Both the position numbers and the translations under genes were made by a program. A stretch of DNA of 51,417 nt from the NCBI GenBank assembly GCA_049303575.1, contig JBAQNH010000001.1, forward strand, positions 1 through 51,417, read 5' to 3'. Position 1 is the first letter of the stretch. Each line of letters starts with the position of its first letter. The notes under the pieces are model-generated. The model worked only from the letters and a program-made list of their open reading frames with translations. It made no database searches and was not told where the DNA came from. This document shows, piece by piece, positions 12,494 through 29,200 of the stretch. This DNA is from Microgenomates group bacterium. Its GTDB lineage: Bacteria > Patescibacteriota > Microgenomatia > UBA1400 > MFAQ01.

Positions 12494-13768
12494 ATGAGAT
12501 TTTCACCAAAAATATATAAACTAGGGAAACTGCGAGTGGTGCTGGTACCGGAGGAGAGAGAGTCAGTGACGGTGCGAGTGATGATTGGTACCGGTTCTCG
12601 TGAAGAAACCGACAGTGAGGCGGGTAGTGCTCATTTTTTGGAACATTTTGTCTTTAAGGGTACGCGAAAATTTCCTCGAATGTTTGATATTAATGAGGCT
12701 GTCGAAAAAGTAGGAGGCGCTTTTAATGCCTATACCGGTCAGAACGAGATGGGTTTTTGGGTAAAGATGGACAAAGGTCATGTGGTCTTGGCTACCGAGA
12801 TTGTGGGGCAGGTAGTGACAGAGCCTGTTTTACCTAAAGAACATTTTAATAAAGAAAGAGGCACAATTCTGGAGGAGCTTCATATGTATGAGGACAGGCC
12901 GAACAGTAAAGCTGCCGAGGAGTGTGAAAAATTGCTGTACGGCAAAACCAATATGGGGAGACCAATTATTGGAACAGTGGAGAGTTTGAAAGCGATGACG
13001 GTTGAAGAATTGCGGAAGTATTTTGAGAAATGGTTTGTAGCCGAAAATATTGTTCTTGGTGTAGTGGGTGAGTATGGATCCGATGAGTCAATGCTGGAGC
13101 TAATTAAGAAAGAGTTTGGCTCGCTCATCGACGATACCAGGACACTTTTAGAGAAAGATAAATTTTCCTGGGATGATCAGAAAAAACCGAGAATAAAGCT
13201 GGTCAGCCGTAAAGTGGAGCAGGCTGCAGTTTATGTGGCATTTAGGGGCATTAAGATGACTGATGAGAGGCGTTTCACCCTGGAACTGTTGAACATTATT
13301 TACGGTGATGGGTGGATGTCCCGTTTGATGCGCGAAGTTCGTGAGGAGAGGGGTTGGGCTTATGCCATAGGTTCCGGAGTGGAAGAATTTTCGGATGCGG
13401 GGAGTGTAATGGTTGGAGCCGGGTTACCAAAGAACAAATTAAATGAGGCAGTGGAACTAATCACCGAGATAAGTGTGGGCTTGGCCGGGGGAAATGTCTG
13501 GGCTGTAAAAGACGAGGAGCTGGTGGTGGCTAAGGATTGTTTCCGTGGCCGCCTGGCATTGGCTTTTGACAAGCCTGAAGAGGTACTTGGTTCGGCACTG
13601 GAAGATACCCTTTTTAGGGAAAAAATATATAGTCCGGAGGAAATAATCGAAAAAATTGAAAGCGTAAGGATGGAGGATGTACGTAGTTTGGCAGCAGAAA
13701 TCTTTAAAAAAGAAAATATGTCGATTGCTGTTGTAGGAGATTATAAGAAACTAGATTTTAAAATTTAA
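12494..13768 (+). CDS. M16-family (insulinase/pitrilysin-like) zinc peptidase
   Basis: 424 aa. Inverted zinc motif HxxEH in GSAHFLEHFVFKGT. Typical two-domain length. Confidence 0.9.
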   Translation: MRFSPKIYKLGKLRVVLVPEERESVTVRVMIGTGSREETDSEAGSAHFLEHFVFKGTRKFPRMFDINEAVEKVGGAFNAYTGQNEMGFWVKMDKGHVVLATEIVGQVVTEPVLPKEHFNKERGTILEELHMYEDRPNSKAAEECEKLLYGKTNMGRPIIGTVESLKAMTVEELRKYFEKWFVAENIVLGVVGEYGSDESMLELIKKEFGSLIDDTRTLLEKDKFSWDDQKKPRIKLVSRKVEQAAVYVAFRGIKMTDERRFTLELLNIIYGDGWMSRLMREVREERGWAYAIGSGVEEFSDAGSVMVGAGLPKNKLNEAVELITEISVGLAGGNVWAVKDEELVVAKDCFRGRLALAFDKPEEVLGSALEDTLFREKIYSPEEIIEKIESVRMEDVRSLAAEIFKKENMSIAVVGDYKKLDFKI

Positions 13769-15938: not shown

Positions 15939-15959
15939 GGTTTTATGATTTACTAATTG

Positions 15960-16030
15960 TGGACCTGGGGGGAATTGAACCCCCATCTTGGCAATGCGAA
16001 TGCCATGTTCTACCGTTGTACTACAGGCCC
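15960..16030 (-). tRNA. tRNA-Ala (anticodon CGC)
   Basis: 71-nt manual cloverleaf. Acceptor GGGCCUG/CAGGUCC with the G3:U70 Ala identity pair. Anticodon stem UGGCA/UGCCA with loop UUCGCAU. T arm GGGGG-UUCAAUU-CCCCC. No encoded CCA. Confidence 0.85.
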
Positions 16031-16092
16031 GATAGATGTATTTTATCAACAATATGTTCGATTTTAATTTGTCATTCACATAGAGTAGTTCT

Positions 16093-16803
16093 GTGGTACA
16101 GTTAATTATGAATGATTATTCTGCGAAGGATATTAAAAAGGCCAAAGAACTGCGTCTTAACGGGAGAACGTATGGTGAGATAAGCAGGGAGTTAAATAAA
16201 ATTATTCCAAAGAGTACTTTTTCCTATTGGTTCAGGGGTTTAGTTCTTTCTTCTGACGTTCAAGAAAAGTTGTCGGAAAATATCGCAGAAAAACTAAACA
16301 TTGCTCGAATAAAAGCCGTAAAAGTAAACAAAGAAAAACGAAGTGTGTTTCTAAAATCTCTTGACCAAGAAAATGAACCTGTTAGTAGAAAACTGAAAGA
16401 ATTAGATACGGCCAAAATTGCACTTTCTATGTTATGTTTGGGTGAAGCATCAAAATATGGAAGTGGTGCAGCATTTTATTTAGGTAGTTCAAACCCTAAA
16501 ATAATCATTCTTTTTGTAAAATTATTAAAACGCTGTTTTCCAATAGATTTTTCAAAGTTTAGATTTACGGTTCAGTGCCGTGCTGATCAAGATGTTGAAG
16601 AACTGGAAAGATATTGGAGGAAAGTAGTTGGGGTAGCTGGTGGACAGTTTTACAAAACTAGAATTGACCCAAGATCTTCAGGAAAACCAACTGAAAAGGT
16701 TGATTACAAAGGAGTTTTGCGTGTTGATTATTTGGATACAAAAGTTCAGTTGGAGCTGGAATCTCTAGCTAATTTGCTTTATAATCAAGCAGTTAGTTTA
16801 TAA
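16093..16803 (+). CDS. HTH-domain protein of unknown function wedged between two tRNA-Ala genes (possible degenerate homing-endonuclease-like protein)
   Basis: 236 aa. N-terminal resolvase-like HTH AKELRLNGRTYGEISRELNKIIPKSTFSYWFRG. Mid-section ALSMLCLGEASKYG is faintly LAGLIDADG-like. Its TAA stop (16801-16803) abuts the tRNA 5' end at 16804. Confidence 0.65.
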   Translation: MVQLIMNDYSAKDIKKAKELRLNGRTYGEISRELNKIIPKSTFSYWFRGLVLSSDVQEKLSENIAEKLNIARIKAVKVNKEKRSVFLKSLDQENEPVSRKLKELDTAKIALSMLCLGEASKYGSGAAFYLGSSNPKIIILFVKLLKRCFPIDFSKFRFTVQCRADQDVEELERYWRKVVGVAGGQFYKTRIDPRSSGKPTEKVDYKGVLRVDYLDTKVQLELESLANLLYNQAVSL

Positions 16804-16876
16804 GGGCCCTTAGCTCACCTGGTAGAGCGCTACTATGGCATAGTAGAGGTAGTCGGTTCGAGTCCGATAGGGTCCA
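16804..16876 (+). tRNA. tRNA-Ala (anticodon GGC)
   Basis: 73-nt cloverleaf. GGGCCCU/AGGGUCC with G3:U70. D arm GCUC-ACCUGGUA-GAGC. Anticodon stem CUACU/AGUAG with loop AUGGCAU. T arm GUCGG-UUCGAGU-CCGAU. No CCA. Confidence 0.9.
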
Positions 16877-16880
16877 CAAA

Positions 16881-16929: not shown

Positions 16930-18894
16930 TTACTGGAGTGTTCCTGACTGGGTTGAGGCCGGGGCGGGGGCAAGTTTTTCCAAGGCCTTAATTTCTTCCT
17001 GAATAGTAGTGATGTTTTCTCCCTTGGGATCGGTGAACTGGAGACCGGCTTGGGCATACCGGAGTGCTTTAGCATACTCCTTTTTGGTTTTGTAAATACT
17101 GGAAAGATTGAAGTAGGGCACATCCCAGTTCTGTTTGAGTTCACTGGCGCGATCAATAAATTTAATAGCTTGATCGGTGTCGCCAAGGTTATAGAGGAGA
17201 ATACCAAGTTGAAGATAAAGTGCGGGATTGGTTGGATCAACTGAGGCAGCCTGAAGTCCGTGAGAAATTGCCATGTCGGCAGAACCTTCGGCGTAAGGAA
17301 TAAGTGATCTGTAAACCGAGAAAAGATTCTCCCAGACAGTGACGTTCATTGGATCCAACTTGGCCGAGGTTTTTCCGGCGTCAAGGGAACGTTGGGCAAA
17401 ATCGGTACCAGATTTTTTCTCTTCATCGGTAGAGTTTTCTTTGGAAAGATAGGTGTTGGCGATGGAGAGATAAATTTGAGACAGCTTTTGAGGGTAGTAG
17501 GGGTTGTAAACATCTAACTGGGCCGATTTCTGGAACTTCAAATATGAGTTATAAGGGTCTGTCTGAAGGGTATCGATTGCTTCTTTGTAGGTAACAGAAG
17601 CAAGATACATCTTGCCGGCAAAGAACCAGTATGACGAAAGCAAGGCGACGGCGATAAAAGTAATTATCCAAGGTAAGAAAGAGGAGGTGACGGTTGTCTT
17701 GGCTGTTTCCGGGAGGTCGTTGTAGACGGGAGAAGCGGATGAGGCGGCGGAAAGGCTGATAGAAACATCCTTTACGGACTTAAGATTCTGGAGTTTTTGT
17801 TCAATGGTAAGACAGATGAGGACAACAAAAGCTAAAACGAGAGAGACAACACCGGTAGGAATGACAAAAAAAGAAATAATGACGGAAACGAGGGCAACGA
17901 TAAGAAAGTTGGAGGAGTTTTTATCTTCGACATTGCGTCTGTTTTTAAGAGAAACAGCTAGTGGTCGGAGGAAAGAAAATAAAAATGATAGAGCTCCGAT
18001 AAGGCCGGTGGTAGTGATAAGGGTAAAAATAAAGTTACTGGACTCCGAAAAGCGAAGATTCCAGAGATATTTGTCCAGATTAAGGAAGGCGGGGCGAAGA
18101 CGGGTAAAAGCAGTGAGAAAAGTTTCCGGTCCAGTGCCGAGAAGAGCAGTCTGCCAGATTTTCATAGTGTCGACAGCGATTGACCAGCCTGCCCGTACAG
18201 GAAGAAGAGAAACAACTGGAATGCCACTTTGGGGAAGAATAAGACTGATGTTGATTACAGTACCGATGATCATCAGGAGAATTGAACCAAACAAGGCCGA
18301 TTTAACGGTCCAGTTTTTGATACCGGTAGCAAAAAGAGTAGTAGCGATGAGGACAGGAATGGTAAAAGAAATGGCGGGAAGTATACCCCCTGTAGGGTTA
18401 AAGAAGCGATTGGTGATGAATTCGGCGGAGGTAAGTTTACCGATGAGGCCGAAGTAGTGTAGTAGGGTGATAAGACTGAGAAGTGAGCCAGAAATAATTA
18501 GTCCGTAGATGCCGGAGTTTACCGTAAAACGATTTTTTTGAGAAGAAACGACGGTAATAAAGATAATAGCTAGGAAGAAAAAGAGAGAGGTTTGTCCAAA
18601 AAGACTGAGGTGTTGGGTTGGACTAATTAATACTGAAGAGACAATGTTGGCGACAACAAGAATTACGAGGGGAAGCAGAGCCGGTGAAGTGGTGAAGTGT
18701 AGTTTGCCACGGGTGATGTTGCGAATACACCAGGCAATTAGAGAAATGGTACCGAGAAGAGCGATGAAAAAATATTTGTTGAAGGCAAAATAATCGGCGG
18801 TAAGGGGAATAAAAAGAAGAGGGGTGAATAAACTGAGAATAAAGGGAACAATTCGTAAAATTTTAGTGGAGATTTTATCTAAAGCTTGTCGCAT
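16930..18894 (-). CDS. Polytopic membrane protein (O-antigen-ligase/polymerase-like) with C-terminal TPR repeats
   Basis: 654 aa with about 10-12 TM helices in the N-terminal 430 aa. The C-terminal part has TPR-like repeats (YLQLGILLYNLGDTDQAIKFIDRASEL, YFNLSSIYKTKKEYAKALRYAQAGL). Confidence 0.7.
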   Translation of the reverse strand: MRQALDKISTKILRIVPFILSLFTPLLFIPLTADYFAFNKYFFIALLGTISLIAWCIRNITRGKLHFTTSPALLPLVILVVANIVSSVLISPTQHLSLFGQTSLFFFLAIIFITVVSSQKNRFTVNSGIYGLIISGSLLSLITLLHYFGLIGKLTSAEFITNRFFNPTGGILPAISFTIPVLIATTLFATGIKNWTVKSALFGSILLMIIGTVINISLILPQSGIPVVSLLPVRAGWSIAVDTMKIWQTALLGTGPETFLTAFTRLRPAFLNLDKYLWNLRFSESSNFIFTLITTTGLIGALSFLFSFLRPLAVSLKNRRNVEDKNSSNFLIVALVSVIISFFVIPTGVVSLVLAFVVLICLTIEQKLQNLKSVKDVSISLSAASSASPVYNDLPETAKTTVTSSFLPWIITFIAVALLSSYWFFAGKMYLASVTYKEAIDTLQTDPYNSYLKFQKSAQLDVYNPYYPQKLSQIYLSIANTYLSKENSTDEEKKSGTDFAQRSLDAGKTSAKLDPMNVTVWENLFSVYRSLIPYAEGSADMAISHGLQAASVDPTNPALYLQLGILLYNLGDTDQAIKFIDRASELKQNWDVPYFNLSSIYKTKKEYAKALRYAQAGLQFTDPKGENITTIQEEIKALEKLAPAPASTQSGTLQ

Positions 18895-20999: not shown

Positions 21000-21071
21000 C
21001 GGGGTGTAGTGAATCGGTATCACGCTTCGTTCGGGACGAAGAGACAGGCGGTCCAATTCCGCCCACCCCGA
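21000..21071 (+). tRNA. tRNA-Pro (anticodon CGG)
   Basis: 72-nt cloverleaf. CGGGGUG/CACCCCG. D arm GUGA-AUCGGUA-UCAC. Anticodon stem CUUCG/CGAAG with loop UUCGGGA (G37). T arm GGCGG-UCCAAUU-CCGCC. No CCA. Confidence 0.85.
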
Positions 21072-21265
21072 CTTTAGGTATCAATCACCAGACCGGGTTT
21101 TGGTTTTTGGTGAGGTGTTATATAGCGAAATTCGGACCTTTTTCCTACAAAATTTATCAACTAAAATGGTTCACCGTTCGGGGTTTGGCGGCCTTGCGGG
21201 TTTGCTAACTGCCTGTCGGCAGTATTACGGTCGCGCGATATGAATTCCGTAAAAGACCTATATGA

Positions 21266-21293
21266 TTGTTTTGCATCTGTATACTGCTATAAT
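21266..21293 (+). promoter_or_regulatory. Candidate sigma70-type promoter for the precursor gene
   Basis: TTGTTT, 16 nt, then the extended -10 TGCTATAAT (TATAAT at 21288-21293). It sits about 55 nt upstream of the precursor ATG. Confidence 0.35.
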
Positions 21294-21348
21294 ATAGGCC
21301 AGCATGAATCTCATGCAATCACGCACTTTAAGAGAAAGGAGGAAATAC

Positions 21349-21501
21349 ATGGAGACAGAAGATGTCAAAGTTGTACCATTTGGTGCACAGTTTATGCAAA
21401 TGATGCCCAGTTTGGATCAAACGGCCTTATCTATGACCCGTACCCATACCCATACGGGCATGGGCGATTCTGGCCAAGATAGCGAAACAGACAGCGACTA
21501 G
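21349..21501 (+). CDS. Candidate graspetide (omega-ester peptide) precursor, 50 aa
   Basis: Strong SD AAAGGAGGAAATACATG. Sequence METEDVKVVPFGAQFMQMMPSLDQTALSMTRTHTHTGMGDSGQDSETDSD. The leader PFGAQFM resembles the microviridin PFFARFL motif. The C-terminal 20 aa hold 4 Thr, 3 Ser, 4 Asp, 1 Glu and no Lys. It lies immediately upstream of an ATP-grasp gene. The track ORF (21304) was trimmed to the SD-supported ATG. Confidence 0.7.
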   Translation: METEDVKVVPFGAQFMQMMPSLDQTALSMTRTHTHTGMGDSGQDSETDSD

Positions 21502-21520
21502 ACATAGTCGACCCACTCTT

Positions 21521-21543
21521 GGGAGGGGTTATATGCCCCTCCC
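21521..21543 (+). promoter_or_regulatory. GC-rich 8-bp stem-loop between the precursor and ligase genes (possible attenuator or stabiliser)
   Basis: GGGAGGGG-TTATATG-CCCCTCCC starts 20 nt after the precursor stop. There is no T-run, and the ligase SD follows about 12 nt later. Confidence 0.5.
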
Positions 21544-21566
21544 AAATTTCAATAAAAGGAGGAAAG

Positions 21567-22526
21567 ATGAAAATACTTGTTATTACTTCAGGAGATGATC
21601 CCCACATTGATTTAGTAAAGAAGCATCTTCCCTCATCGGAATTTGTTATTTTTGATCCTAAGAAATTAATGGAATCATCAGAAATTTCATATGAGTGGAA
21701 TGGTGCCAAGTTCGACATTATCAGTAATGATTCAAGTTTGAATGATTGCGATGTCGTTTGGTTTAGAAAACCAATCATTCTCGAACCGGAGCAGATGCCC
21801 GTTGAGCAAAAGTATCAGAAGTATGTTCACGGGGCATACAAAAGAACGGCCAATGCAATCTATGCACTTCTAAGAGATAAATTTTGGGTTTCAGATCCTT
21901 GGGCCATAATCAGAGCAAACAATAAGCTTCTTCAACAAGAAGTTGCATCTGATCATGGTCTGCTAATCCCCGACACGCTTGTCACAAACTCACCGACAAA
22001 AGCCAAACTTTTCCTGGACAAACACAGGAAGATAATTGTTAAGCCACTTGGTGCGGAAACGGTAAGCGAAGAAGGATTTGAAAAAGCCTTCTACGCAACA
22101 CAAATTTCTACCAACGACAATATTGACTTCAGTGGACTTAAGGTAGCGCCATCGATATTCCAGCAAGATCTTGTGGGTTTTTTGGATATTCGAGTAACTG
22201 TTGTTGGAAACAACGTCTATGCCTGTGAAATTCACAAAACAGGGACTCTGAAAGAAGGTACAGATTGGAGAACTGGCATTCTTACACCAAATTTGGAATA
22301 CAAAAACCATGGTTTATTTCCCCGAGTCTTAGCTGACCAATGCATGTCAGTTGTCAAGGCTCTAAATCTAAAATTCGGAGCTTTTGATTTTATGCTCGAC
22401 GATAAGGGTAACTACTGGTTTCTTGAAGTAAACCCAAACGGTCAATGGGGCTTCGTCGAACTAGAGGCAAACATTCCCGTATCAGAGGGTTTTGCTGAGT
22501 TATTTACAAACAAAAGTTTTAATTAA
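21567..22526 (+). CDS. Microviridin/graspetide-type ATP-grasp macrocyclase (MdnB/MdnC-like)
   Basis: SD AAAGGAGGAAAGATG. MKILVITSGDDPHIDLV.. (pre-ATP-grasp domain), NKLLQQEVASDHGLLIPDTLVTNSPTKAKLF, DIRVTVVGNNVYACEI, DWR, GAFDFMLDDKGNYWFLEVNPNGQWGFVE. These parallel MdnC segments as I recall them: NHKQLQLQVARQLGLLIPGTL, ELRITIVGEQIF, YDWRK, GAIDMIV..YIFLEINPVGEFFWLE. Confidence 0.85.
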   Translation: MKILVITSGDDPHIDLVKKHLPSSEFVIFDPKKLMESSEISYEWNGAKFDIISNDSSLNDCDVVWFRKPIILEPEQMPVEQKYQKYVHGAYKRTANAIYALLRDKFWVSDPWAIIRANNKLLQQEVASDHGLLIPDTLVTNSPTKAKLFLDKHRKIIVKPLGAETVSEEGFEKAFYATQISTNDNIDFSGLKVAPSIFQQDLVGFLDIRVTVVGNNVYACEIHKTGTLKEGTDWRTGILTPNLEYKNHGLFPRVLADQCMSVVKALNLKFGAFDFMLDDKGNYWFLEVNPNGQWGFVELEANIPVSEGFAELFTNKSFN

Positions 22527-22578
22527 GTTAAAATGAGGGATAATATCACTATTAGATATACCCCTCATTTTTTATTGT

Positions 22579-23079
22579 ATGAAATACACTACAATCGCCG
22601 AAGAATTAAATAAGATGGCTCTGGAAGATCAGCAAGCCAGAGAAAAATTCTATTCACAGAAAGAGCCTAAAAAAGAAACCTTCAAAAATTTAGTCGTACC
22701 AATTGATGAAAGAAACTACCAGAGAATAGCAAAGATTATCGATCAAATCGGTTATCCTACAATCAGTAAAGTTGGTAAACAAGCTTCTTTCAATGCCTGG
22801 TTAATTATTCAGCATCATCCTCAAGTTGAATTCCAAAAAAAATGTTTGCAGTTGATGGAAAATGCAGAAGACGACGTTAATCCACAAAATATTGCCTATC
22901 TCAAAGACCGTGTACTAATGTTTTCTGGCAAAAAGCAAGTTTACGGTACTCAGTTAAAACAGAATGAAATCACAAATAAAATGGAGCTATACAATGTTGA
23001 AGACGAGGCTCATCTAGATGATAGAAGAAAACAAATAGGGCTAGAGCCAATTGCGGAGTATTTAAAAAAATTTGAGTAA
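22579..23079 (+). CDS. Hypothetical 166-aa helical protein
   Basis: Clean ORF with no signal peptide. A GTGCGGG-CAATGTA-CCCGCAC hairpin follows. I recognise no catalytic motif. Confidence 0.65.
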   Translation: MKYTTIAEELNKMALEDQQAREKFYSQKEPKKETFKNLVVPIDERNYQRIAKIIDQIGYPTISKVGKQASFNAWLIIQHHPQVEFQKKCLQLMENAEDDVNPQNIAYLKDRVLMFSGKKQVYGTQLKQNEITNKMELYNVEDEAHLDDRRKQIGLEPIAEYLKKFE

Positions 23080-23132
23080 TTTCGAGAGGGTGCGGGCAAT
23101 GTACCCGCACGTAGGCGGGAACTCTCTGAGTG

Positions 23133-23206
23133 TGAGGTTGGGCAGAGTCGAACTGCCGACCTTCTCGTTAGGAGTGAGATGCTCTATCCATCTGAGCTAC
23201 AACCTC
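23133..23206 (-). tRNA. tRNA-Arg (anticodon CCU)
   Basis: 74-nt cloverleaf. GAGGUUG/CAACCUC. D arm GCUC-AGAUGGAUA-GAGC. Anticodon loop CUCCUAA, with one A-C mismatch at 31:39. T arm GGCAG-UUCGACU-CUGCC. No CCA. Confidence 0.8.
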
Positions 23207-27836: not shown

Positions 27837-28640
27837 ATGAGAAAGAATGTTTTGGGTGCACCGGTAGATTTGTTGTCCGGGGCAGAAACTTTGGAATTAT
27901 TGACCGGTTGGATTGAAAGTAAGTCGAAAATGAAGTTAGTGGTGACTGCTTATAGCGAGTTTTATGTTCGGGCACAGTCTGACCACGAGTTTATGAAGGC
28001 GATGCAGTCTGCCGATCTGGTCACTCCTGACGGGGTATCTGTTTTGGCGGCGGCGAAATATCAAGACAGAGTTGGCGGTAAATCCCTTTTGGGAAAACTG
28101 GGAGAAGGTCTAAGGGTCGGCGGAGAAATATTAAATGGAAAAGTAGGAAAACCGGTGACGGGGGTATGGCTTTTTGAAAACTTGGTAAAAATGGCGGCAG
28201 ATAAGGGTTGGAAGGTATTTTTGCTTGGCGGATGGGATAAGGTGAGCGAAAAAACGGCCAGAATGCTTCTAAATCGGTTTCCAGAGCTTAAGGTGGAATA
28301 TGACGAGGGCGAAGAGAGGGTGGGAACAGACGAAAAGACAAATAGTCGTGTAATTGAAAAAATAAATCGGTTTGCTCCAGACATCTTGTTTGTGTCCTAC
28401 AACCCCATAAAACAGGAAAAATGGTTAGTGAAACATCGTGGTGTTTTAAAGGCAAAAATTGGTATAGGAGTGGGCGGTACTTTTGATGAGTATGCGGGAA
28501 AGATCAAGAAGTCGCCTGAATGGATGGGGAGAATGGGCTTAAAGTGGTTGTGGAGGGTGTTGATTGAGCCGAAGAGATTTGGGAGGATAATGAAAGCAGT
28601 GATTGTGTTTCCCTGGTTAGTATTTAGAAACTCAAAATGA
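27837..28640 (+). CDS. WecB/TagA/CpsF-family glycosyltransferase
   Basis: 267 aa. ..ADLVTPDGVSVLAAAKY.., KVFLLGG, PDILFVSYNPIKQEKW and IGIGVGGTFD are typical of TagA/WecG-type enzymes. Confidence 0.8.
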   Translation: MRKNVLGAPVDLLSGAETLELLTGWIESKSKMKLVVTAYSEFYVRAQSDHEFMKAMQSADLVTPDGVSVLAAAKYQDRVGGKSLLGKLGEGLRVGGEILNGKVGKPVTGVWLFENLVKMAADKGWKVFLLGGWDKVSEKTARMLLNRFPELKVEYDEGEERVGTDEKTNSRVIEKINRFAPDILFVSYNPIKQEKWLVKHRGVLKAKIGIGVGGTFDEYAGKIKKSPEWMGRMGLKWLWRVLIEPKRFGRIMKAVIVFPWLVFRNSK

Positions 28641-29200
28641 TAAACACGGTTTCAAAGGGTAAGAATGGATTTTCACTCGGACTGGGTCATAAAATTATGT
28701 CAGGTTTCGCGGGTTATCTTTATCGTGGTGGTTATCTTAGCGAGTATGTAGATGTTGACACACTGACGGGTTTGTATAATCGCAACTTCTTTGAAAGATG
28801 GCACCCAAAAATTGTGTCTCAGGCAGAAAGAGCGGGTGTGGATCTGGTAGTGGTATCTGTTGACGTAAACGGGTTGAAAAAAGCGAATGACAGTAGTGGC
28901 CATGCCGCCGGAGACAGAATGATAAAGAGCTTGGCAAGGCTGTTTTTGAAAACAGTACGTGACTCGGACCTGGTAATTAGAATGGGAGGAGACGAGTTCC
29001 TGTTGATTTTATGGAACAGTCAGTTAGAGGGAGCGGAAGGGATGCTAGGTAGGGTGCTGGAGAAGGCAGAGGAGAAGGAGTTGAGTTTTAGCTATGGTTT
29101 GGCCTTGGCCGAGAAGGGGAAAAACATAATAGGGAAGGTTGAGGAGGCTGACGAGAAAATGTATTTAATGAAAAGGGCTTCAAAGGCAGGTAGAGCTTGA
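28637..29200 (+). CDS. Stand-alone GGDEF-domain protein (putative diguanylate cyclase)
   Basis: DTLTGLYNRNFFE.., VVSVDVNGLKKANDSSGHAAGDRMIKSLA, IRMGGDEFLLIL (GGDEF motif intact). Its ATG overlaps the upstream stop (ATGA). Confidence 0.85.
   Translation: MINTVSKGKNGFSLGLGHKIMSGFAGYLYRGGYLSEYVDVDTLTGLYNRNFFERWHPKIVSQAERAGVDLVVVSVDVNGLKKANDSSGHAAGDRMIKSLARLFLKTVRDSDLVIRMGGDEFLLILWNSQLEGAEGMLGRVLEKAEEKELSFSYGLALAEKGKNIIGKVEEADEKMYLMKRASKAGRA

Follow-up and report, generated by a model that had tools for sequence, protein, structure and literature searches.

A probable three-gene graspetide cassette inserted at a tRNA-Arg gene in a candidate phyla radiation bacterium

Introduction

What could a single ATP-grasp enzyme be making in a reduced bacterial genome when the gene directly before it encodes a peptide of only 50 amino acids? 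The question is posed by a stretch of 51,417 nucleotides from a Microgenomates group bacterium (GenBank assembly GCA_049303575.1, contig JBAQNH010000001.1, positions 1 to 51,417; the whole stretch is referred to here as the window). An earlier note on this DNA had pointed to an ATP-grasp gene at 21567-22526 preceded by a 50-amino-acid open reading frame (ORF) with a near-perfect Shine-Dalgarno (SD) sequence, all of which are present in the sequence, and had read the two genes as the ligase and precursor of a graspetide. Graspetides are a well-studied class of RiPPs, peptides that are ribosomally synthesized and then post-translationally modified. Our analysis supports a self-contained, three-gene graspetide (omega-ester RiPP) cassette composed of the precursor, the ATP-grasp ligase and a DUF6624 gene, a reading to which we assign a probability of about 0.8.

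Results and Discussion

A predicted graspetide macrocyclase

The ligase gene (21567-22526, + strand) encodes 319 amino acids and starts at ATG 21567, behind the SD sequence AAAGGAGG at 21555-21562; the TTG at 21519, a mechanical ORF start, was rejected in favor of this codon. Among NCBIfam profiles, the protein matched TIGR04187 (SAV_5884 subfamily) over its full length (2e-57), MvdC (3.6e-49) and MvdD (7.6e-40), ahead of the grasp-with-spasm maturase (8e-21), the RimK family (6e-10) and GshB (about 1e-6). Its sequence matches in the PDB were all to graspetide macrocyclases (MdnB, 5ig8, 3e-36; AMdnB; PruB; MdnC; CdnC; PsnB). An AlphaFold2 (AF2) model of high confidence (predicted local distance difference test score, pLDDT, of 94.4) retrieved graspetide ligase chains as the top 32 hits in Foldseek (E = 5e-27 to 2e-17), with template modeling (TM) scores of 0.81-0.84 against CdnC, AMdnB and MdnC. 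Further, residues E287 and N289 of an E-x-N motif and D233 and R235 of a D-W-R motif were invariant in 29 relatives, and W234 nearly so. Judged by sequence profiles, PDB sequence matches and predicted fold, the enzyme is a graspetide macrocyclase of the MvdD/MdnC type and not a RimK.

The competing view is that the protein is a RimK/GshB-type ligase acting on a protein or a small molecule, and that the small ORF is a chance frame. Precomputed Pfam labels and Joint Genome Institute (JGI) names do give relatives as “RimK-type ligase” and, in PHROGs, the ligase matched only the RimK-like “ribosomal protein S6 glutaminyl transferase” family (3e-17; DUF6624 matched none). Yet RimK profiles reached 38.9 bits where the RiPP maturase models reached 137-195 bits, and the first RimK structure in the Foldseek search appeared at rank 33 (1.8e-16), after all of the graspetide ligase chains. 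The conservation of the small ORF described below, where the core changes only synonymously and a strong SD-like sequence precedes the gene in nearly all loci, also speaks against a chance frame, and we regard a RimK/GshB-type function as very improbable. The assignment as a graspetide macrocyclase agrees with the earlier note, which had likened the enzyme to MdnB/MdnC rather than RimK or Ddl on the basis of four sequence segments, all of them in the protein. It had also proposed a comparison of graspetide profiles with those of RimK and GshB, which the graspetide families won; clustering with RimK/GshB was not observed.

A conserved precursor peptide

The precursor gene (21349-21501, + strand; 50 amino acids plus stop) encodes METEDVKVVPFGAQFMQMMPSLDQTALSMTRTHTHTGMGDSGQDSETDSD and has the SD sequence AAAGGAGG at 21335-21342, 6 nt 5' of its ATG; 65 nt separate it from the ligase gene. 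Approximately residues 1-29 (21349-21435) make up the leader, in which the motif VVPFGAQFM (21370-21396) spans V8-M16; residues 30-50 form the core (21436-21498). The last 20 residues contain seven Ser/Thr, five Asp/Glu and no Lys, exactly as the earlier note had counted them.

We scanned ligase relatives in genomes and metagenomes and also inspected contigs from seven close homologues. In 15 distinct loci, a homologous ligase had a small ORF of this family directly upstream of it, and such an ORF preceded the ligase in every close relative with upstream DNA. The conserved precursor-ligase pairs that the note had proposed to look for in related genomes thus exist, and its choice of the 50-amino-acid ORF as precursor was borne out. 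Across 13 precursor variants, P10, F11, T32 and T36 were invariant, and hydrophobic residues occupied positions +5 and +6 after P10-F11 (F/Y/L/V, then M/L/V). The leader segment VVPFGAQFMQ had been compared with the PFFARFL motif of microviridins, a likeness that the invariant P10-F11 reinforces; the pattern Phhx(1,2)h, of which PFFARFL is the microviridin form, is present, although the Gly at the third position departs from a strict h. A strong SD-like sequence stood before the precursor in nearly all loci printed.

The codons of the core provide independent support. Relative to the L001 locus (ligase identity, 69%), 15 synonymous and no non-synonymous changes fall in the last 21 codons of the precursor. 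Thus, the precursor ORF is a real, strongly constrained gene, with a core that this codon comparison indicates to be subject to purifying selection. Among 5.8 billion proteins, a profile search recovered only 16 clusters of the family, which looks rare, though genes this short are under-called. L001 and L002, the closest loci from genome collections, are labelled as “uncultured Pseudomonadales” and “uncultured Chloroflexi” metagenome-assembled genomes (MAGs). Both contigs are probably mis-binned, since they are short (6.6 and 14.8 kb) and every other close relative of the cassette belongs to the candidate phyla radiation (CPR).

A predicted ladder of nested esters

The core, TRTHTHTGMGDSGQDSETDSD, has neither Lys nor KYPSD and, as the earlier note had remarked, does not resemble the microviridin core TxKYPSDWEEY. 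Written out by position it is T30-R-T32-H-T34-H-T36-GMGDSGQ-D44-S-E46-T-D48-S-D50, with donors and acceptors each spaced by one residue. Because this spacing is equal on both strands, we predict four nested esters (T36-D44, T34-E46, T32-D48 and T30-D50) and a product lighter by 72 Da. By atom count, the predicted loop ring would be 29-membered, and the stem rings would contain 23, 23 and 22 atoms. One ligase and a Lys-free core also fit an ester-only product, and the single-ligase macrolactone proposed in the note is compatible with this prediction.

Related cores suggest how the pattern varies. The four variants nearest to the window precursor pair TxTxTxT with DxExDxD (or DxDxDxD). Counted as donor plus acceptor rungs, by locus or protein, the pattern was 4 + 4 in L082 (TNTFTHTGIGDSGQDSETDSD), L083 (TNTFSHTGLGDSGQDSDTDSD) and P0221 (TRTHSHTGLGSDGQDSETDND). 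It was 3 + 3 in L084 and L085 (ANTQTHTGISDNGQDSDTD), and likewise in two cores that pair TxTxT with DxDxD, that of L086 and L090 (TGTATGSD...GDNDKD) and that of L087 (TITKTGGKKPPGQDTDSDA). In L084 and L085, the outermost Thr is replaced by Ala together with the loss of the C-terminal Ser-Asp. Thus, as a sequence pattern, the numbers of donor and acceptor rungs co-vary across variants. The best-conserved loop, G-h-G-D-S-G-Q, contains an Asp; in the stem-loop graspetides known as graspimiditides, a methyltransferase drives the conversion of such a loop Asp to an aspartimide.

The same graspetide system could nonetheless be linked differently, with only three esters, with participation of the loop Asp40 or a Ser, or with a non-nested topology. 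The core holds spare donors (S41, S45, T47 and S49) and a spare acceptor (D40) as additional potential cross-link partners, the WWE3 variant (L003 and L004; TNTGTGTSQPDADHD) has four Thr and three Asp in register (4 + 3), so that rung counts are sometimes unequal, and connectivity is usually not predictable from sequence (Makarova et al.; PMC8939145). Against this stand the joint loss of the outermost Thr and the C-terminal Ser-Asp in L084/L085, the recurrence of three-plus-three and four-plus-four patterns among relatives, and the equal-spacing nested ladders of all four characterized TxT...DxD peptides (PMC13001092). In these peptides (fuscimiditide, amycolimiditide, albusimiditide and SsfA), equally spaced Thr-Asp esters forming a nested stem-loop ladder were solved experimentally, and in amycolimiditide their installation begins at the loop and proceeds strictly outward (PMC13001092; PMC13003496; bioRxiv 10.1101/2023.06.21.545981). 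We therefore favor the four nested esters and consider a different set of links a minority possibility, though one of some weight.

DUF6624, the third gene

The gene at 22579-23079 (+ strand), which the earlier note had listed as one unknown 166-amino-acid gene outside its two-gene module, is better described as the conserved third member of the cluster, which extends the unit to 23079. Its product, which has no signal peptide, matched DUF6624 (PF20329, 2.2e-22). In all close loci with a DUF6624 ORF, the gene was found 29-64 nt downstream of the ligase gene or abutting it (L087), and it was also adjacent to the ligase in Dojkabacteria loci, one Yanofskybacteria locus and several others. An uncharacterized “cluster 23” protein accompanies all CPR Branch 2 loci (Makarova et al., PMC8939145), and its alignment shares the QH...DR...QxYGTQ motifs of DUF6624. 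Similarly, DUF6624 occurs in 81.8% of group 42 clusters and may, according to the same study, be a biosynthetic enzyme not yet described (Carter et al. 2026, PMC13097080). In an alignment of 33 relatives, the invariant polar residues were Q78, H79, D110, R111, Q120, Y122 and T124. The AF2 model is mostly helical (pLDDT 95.6), and neither Foldseek (best E = 0.84) nor profile searching against PDB sequences (best E = 0.078) found a relative in the PDB. DUF6624 may be an undescribed fold. Given that the protein of this clade lacks a signal peptide, it is expected to act in the cytoplasm.

DUF6624 might instead be an immunity or binding protein with no biosynthetic role, in which case the cassette would be a small mobile toxin-plus-immunity unit used in competition among CPR bacteria or against their hosts. 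The mobility of the cassette, which is present in some close relatives and absent from others, would suit such a unit, as would the fact that neither a cofactor-binding motif nor a known fold was found in DUF6624. In addition, some relatives (P0157 and P0181) have signal-peptide-like or lipoprotein-like N-termini that fit an extracytoplasmic guard (PMC8939145). However, the invariant polar residues resemble an active site more than a binding surface, the proteins of this clade carry no signal peptide and antibacterial activity is known for no related peptide. Immunity or binding thus seems to us unlikely.

Expression signals and points against the cassette

A stem-loop at 21519-21545 (+ strand; 11-bp stem, 5-nt loop) fills the spacer between precursor and ligase. 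It folds at -29.9 kcal/mol (z = -4.66), a value that no sequence among 200 shuffles equalled. The earlier note had marked a GC-rich stem-loop at 21521-21543; the hairpin and its position stand, with an equivalent in 15 of 15 loci, and the span given there corresponds to the G+C core of the full element. The sequences of these hairpins are unrelated, and most are followed by a T-run. Retention of the structure without conservation of the sequence supports a function, likeliest as a partial terminator or attenuator that keeps the precursor in excess. A second terminator-like hairpin followed by U6 occupies the spacer between the ligase and DUF6624 genes (22530-22571, + strand), where an inverted repeat folds at -15.3 kcal/mol (z = -3.2). 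Upstream, we read by eye an extended -10 promoter-like element, TGCTATAAT, at 21285-21293 (+ strand), 55 nt before the precursor ATG; it is a consensus match only. TATAAT-like or extended -10-like matches lay 39-69 nt upstream of the precursor in 9 of the 13 loci printed, and scanning for sigma-70 promoters turned up none with two hexamers ahead of the precursor gene.

Several observations weigh against a complete graspetide cassette. The ligase scored below every curated cut-off (TIGR04187, 194.8 vs 350; MvdC, 167.6 vs 425; MvdD, 137 vs 475), so that it counts as a divergent superfamily member rather than an equivalog of a named enzyme. Among curated models, the precursor reached only E = 0.25 with PF14408 and matched nothing in NCBIfam. 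Neither a leader peptidase nor an exporter is encoded in the cassette. At the level of expression, the tail of the window hairpin (AAATTTC) is a weak T-run, so that termination is not assured, and the DUF6624 gene has no obvious SD. The extra potential cross-link partners of the core and the unequal rung counts of the WWE3 variant belong with these points.

Insertion at the 3' end of tRNA-Arg

The Ndk protein of the window clusters at 90% identity with proteins of Candidatus Collierbacteria. The host is a CPR bacterium, probably of this group, in keeping with the CPR-like genome that the earlier note had presumed. We read 24 contigs carrying that Ndk, five places of which are shown, and found the empty site with the gene order of the window (TPR protein, hypothetical protein, DprA, Ndk, tRNA-Pro, tRNA-Arg, 219-amino-acid protein, PEGA protein and MreB). 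In the empty-site contigs L168-L172, tRNA-Pro and tRNA-Arg are 35 nt apart and the cassette is absent. In the window, a 2,015-bp insert (21117-23131) carrying the promoter region and the three genes, all on the + strand, separates tRNA-Pro(CGG) (21000-21072, + strand; ARAGORN; Rfam, 57.8 bits) from tRNA-Arg(CCT) (23132-23206, - strand; ARAGORN and Rfam). The tRNA-Pro gene forms the left anchor outside the inserted DNA and is 100% identical between filled and empty alleles.

Comparison of the junctions with empty-site contigs L168, L170, L171 and L172, together with a three-way alignment, identified a 7-bp direct repeat, GTGAGGT, on both sides of the insert. The right copy (23132-23138 on the + strand) constitutes the 3' end of tRNA-Arg. 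On the left, the copy at 21110-21116 closes a 13-nt stretch, TTTTTGGTGAGGT (21104-21116), left over from the tRNA-Arg 3' end and adjoining flank. The CCA that the empty allele encodes in the genome is missing from the filled one. The cassette also differs in composition, with a GC skew of 0.034 vs 0.274 +/- 0.066 in the host (1.8-kb windows; host minimum 0.102; z = -3.65). By gene, the skew is 0.03-0.05 in the three cassette genes and 0.27-0.43 in the listed flanking genes. These results show that the cassette entered this Collierbacteria lineage recently by insertion at the 3' end of tRNA-Arg(CCT). The earlier note had recognized both bracketing tRNA genes, the ends of which we correct to 21072 (tRNA-Pro) and 23132 (tRNA-Arg), as mere context; the tRNA-Arg gene is in fact the insertion site. 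We rejected the 3' end of tRNA-Pro as the attachment site because no repeat was found there and the repeat belongs to tRNA-Arg.

The GC skew of the + strand is itself extreme across the window, with a mean of about 0.27 and values of 0.15-0.39 in 1.5-kb bins, whichever strand the genes are on, and sister contigs (L168-L174) have values of 0.29-0.33. A very strong replication-strand bias is one possibility.

The filled allele was also present at the same site in other samples. Between the window and one such contig, L173, the cassette is 95.5% identical and the flanks 85% and 90%. From this difference in identity, the cassette may postdate the divergence of its hosts, or the hosts may have exchanged it; the identical tRNA genes could have acted as recombination anchors. 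The insert encodes three genes only, with no integrase, excisionase or transposase in 21117-23131. A seed-9 repeat search across the cassette returned chance-level pairs only, and conserved termini could not be defined, as DNA homology with L001, L081 and L083 is confined to coding regions.

Related cassettes elsewhere also lie close to tRNA genes. In L081 and L082, tRNA-His is located approximately 100 nt upstream. In L089 (950-1157), further copies of a tRNA-Ala 3' end, ATTCCGGTACGGTCCACCA, occur just upstream of the precursor, at 1061-1079 and, incompletely, at 1141-1157, as if DNA had integrated at this tRNA more than once and left scars. In the complete WWE3 genome RAAC2_WWE3_1 (CP006914; L004, 2202-6685), a segment of approximately 200 bp with tRNA-Gln(ttg) and upstream sequence is duplicated 4,288 bp apart. 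The duplicates bracket a 4.3-kb block with alpha/beta-hydrolase-like, precursor, ligase, DUF6624 and S-adenosylmethionine (SAM)-methyltransferase-like genes that looks like an island bounded by tRNA copies. The window holds a second tRNA-linked rearrangement, in the region 15959-16877: tRNA-Ala(cgc) (15959-16030, - strand) is parted from tRNA-Ala(ggc) by a 236-amino-acid ORF (16093-16803), and in sister contigs (L168, 1239-1426) both tRNA-Ala genes lie side by side on the + strand.

Neighboring genes

No protease, GNAT, methyltransferase or transporter gene was found among the neighbors scanned (14.2-32.7 kb), as the earlier note had stated for the protease, GNAT and transporter. The closest peptidase to the cassette, an M16 (insulinase-type) enzyme at 12494-13768, lies 7.6 kb upstream, and nothing links it to the cassette. 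A gene for a 653-amino-acid TPR protein (16930-18894) is located 2.2 kb upstream; TPR proteins are companions of some CPR graspetide loci in the literature. Its presence in the empty-site genomes as well places this gene outside the cassette. Across the whole window, Rfam returned five tRNAs only, with no riboswitch or other RNA near the cassette. In PADLOC, the precursor, ligase and DUF6624 had no defense-system match and the downstream neighbor hyp219 had only a weak one (E = 0.0057). Farther downstream, the reduced genome carries a small GGDEF diguanylate cyclase domain protein (28637-29200; 187 amino acids) beside a WecG/TagA-type glycosyltransferase.

Relation to known systems

Graspetide clusters of the CPR have been described as “Branch 2” of the ATP-grasp ligases (Makarova et al. 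2022, PMC8939145) and as group 42, which combines a synthetase with DUF6624 in candidate phyla (Carter et al. 2026, PMC13097080). Like these, the cassette has a host from the candidate phyla and encodes a small precursor, one ATP-grasp ligase and then DUF6624. Locus L004 corresponds to the 316-amino-acid RAAC2_WWE3_1 enzyme listed in Branch 2 and is 44% identical to the window ligase; on the strength of this sequence match, we place the ligase clade of the window in Branch 2. No precursor was tabled for the 316-amino-acid WWE3 enzymes of Branch 2, whose precursors were described as unidentified, perhaps unannotated small genes (PMC8939145). The peptide with the pattern PFG...TxTxT...DxDxD is predicted to supply this missing substrate. 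The group 42 representative (Komeilibacteria) differs in its leader (PLILDRL) and its core (GFTTHGTPNDPDSGGTD). The ligase of L061, a locus with a group 42-like precursor, is about 31% identical to that of the window (149 bits). Judged through this look-alike locus rather than the group 42 reference ligase, the clade of the window is probably a network cluster separate from group 42.

The closest parallels in architecture are the stem-loop graspimiditides amycolimiditide, albusimiditide and fuscimiditide (group 13), which also rely on one ATP-grasp ligase and on Thr-Asp esters only, as predicted for the cassette. Both place equally spaced donors on an N-terminal strand and acceptors on a C-terminal strand, and both have, here as a sequence pattern, two to five nested rungs and a loop that holds an Asp. 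The best NCBIfam match of the ligase is to the actinobacterial SAV_5884 subfamily, though the TIGR04187 cut-off is not reached. Unlike the graspimiditides of Actinomycetota, the cassette has a CPR host, a short leader (approximately 29 amino acids) with a PFG motif, and DUF6624 in the accessory position. It also lacks a PIMT-type O-methyltransferase, so no enzymatic aspartimide is expected.

With microviridin (MdnA with MdnB and MdnC), the cassette shares the ligase fold (MdnB being the closest solved sequence), a Pro-aromatic recognition motif in the leader and a precursor gene directly upstream. It differs in its core, which is not TxKxPSDx(D/E)(D/E) and contains no Lys, hence no lactam, and in having one ligase vs two (MdnC/MvdD for the ester and MdnB/MvdC for the amide), no GNAT and no ABC transporter. 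Its ligase also scores below the equivalog cut-offs of MvdC and MvdD. As an element, the cassette resembles genomic islands at tRNA 3' ends in where it inserted, in restoring the tRNA through a short direct repeat, in having filled and empty alleles and in its foreign composition. Unlike them, it is only 2.0 kb long, has a 7-bp repeat and carries no integrase, excisionase or transposase.

Given the published Branch 2 and group 42 systems and the resemblance of the core pattern to stem-loop graspetides, the “new graspetide group” of the earlier note was an overstatement. A full-text literature search found no further paper linking graspetides with the CPR and none else mentioning DUF6624. What seems new here is the assigned precursor family, the predicted methyltransferase-free ester ladder and the direct evidence of recent insertion.

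A possible route to the product

In the simplest scheme, transcription would start at the extended -10-like promoter within the insert and yield mainly a short precursor mRNA. The stem-loops after the precursor and ligase genes would let part of the transcripts through, so that substrate exceeds enzymes. By homology, the ligase would dock on the Pro-Phe leader motif VVPFGAQFM, the counterpart of the microviridin PFFARFL helix, and spend one ATP per link to convert an Asp/Glu carboxylate to an acyl phosphate that is captured by a Thr hydroxyl. Links formed from the loop outward would produce a tetracyclic beta-hairpin ladder around the loop. In the cytoplasm, DUF6624 could then tailor or mature the peptide or take part as a partner protein.

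A more far-reaching proposal joins two ideas: that DUF6624 represents a new class of cofactor-independent graspetide-finishing enzymes (for example, for leader removal or modification of the loop Asp) and that the 2-kb unit is an integrase-less mobile cassette that targets tRNA 3' ends and spreads among CPR bacteria as an exchangeable peptide for their dealings with hosts or rivals. We offer this combination tentatively and think it rather improbable as a whole.

Conclusions

The locus is thus best explained as a compact graspetide cassette, and its value lies partly in its size. It is approximately the smallest complete test system for the role of DUF6624 and for the substrates of the orphan Branch 2 ligases of the CPR, with a precursor of simple, predictable ladder topology. 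The filled and empty alleles and the contrast in composition are rare direct evidence that a RiPP cluster was recently gained by horizontal transfer in the CPR. These bacteria have tiny genomes and little known secondary metabolism, and a peptide that they keep and trade likely matters for their episymbiotic life.

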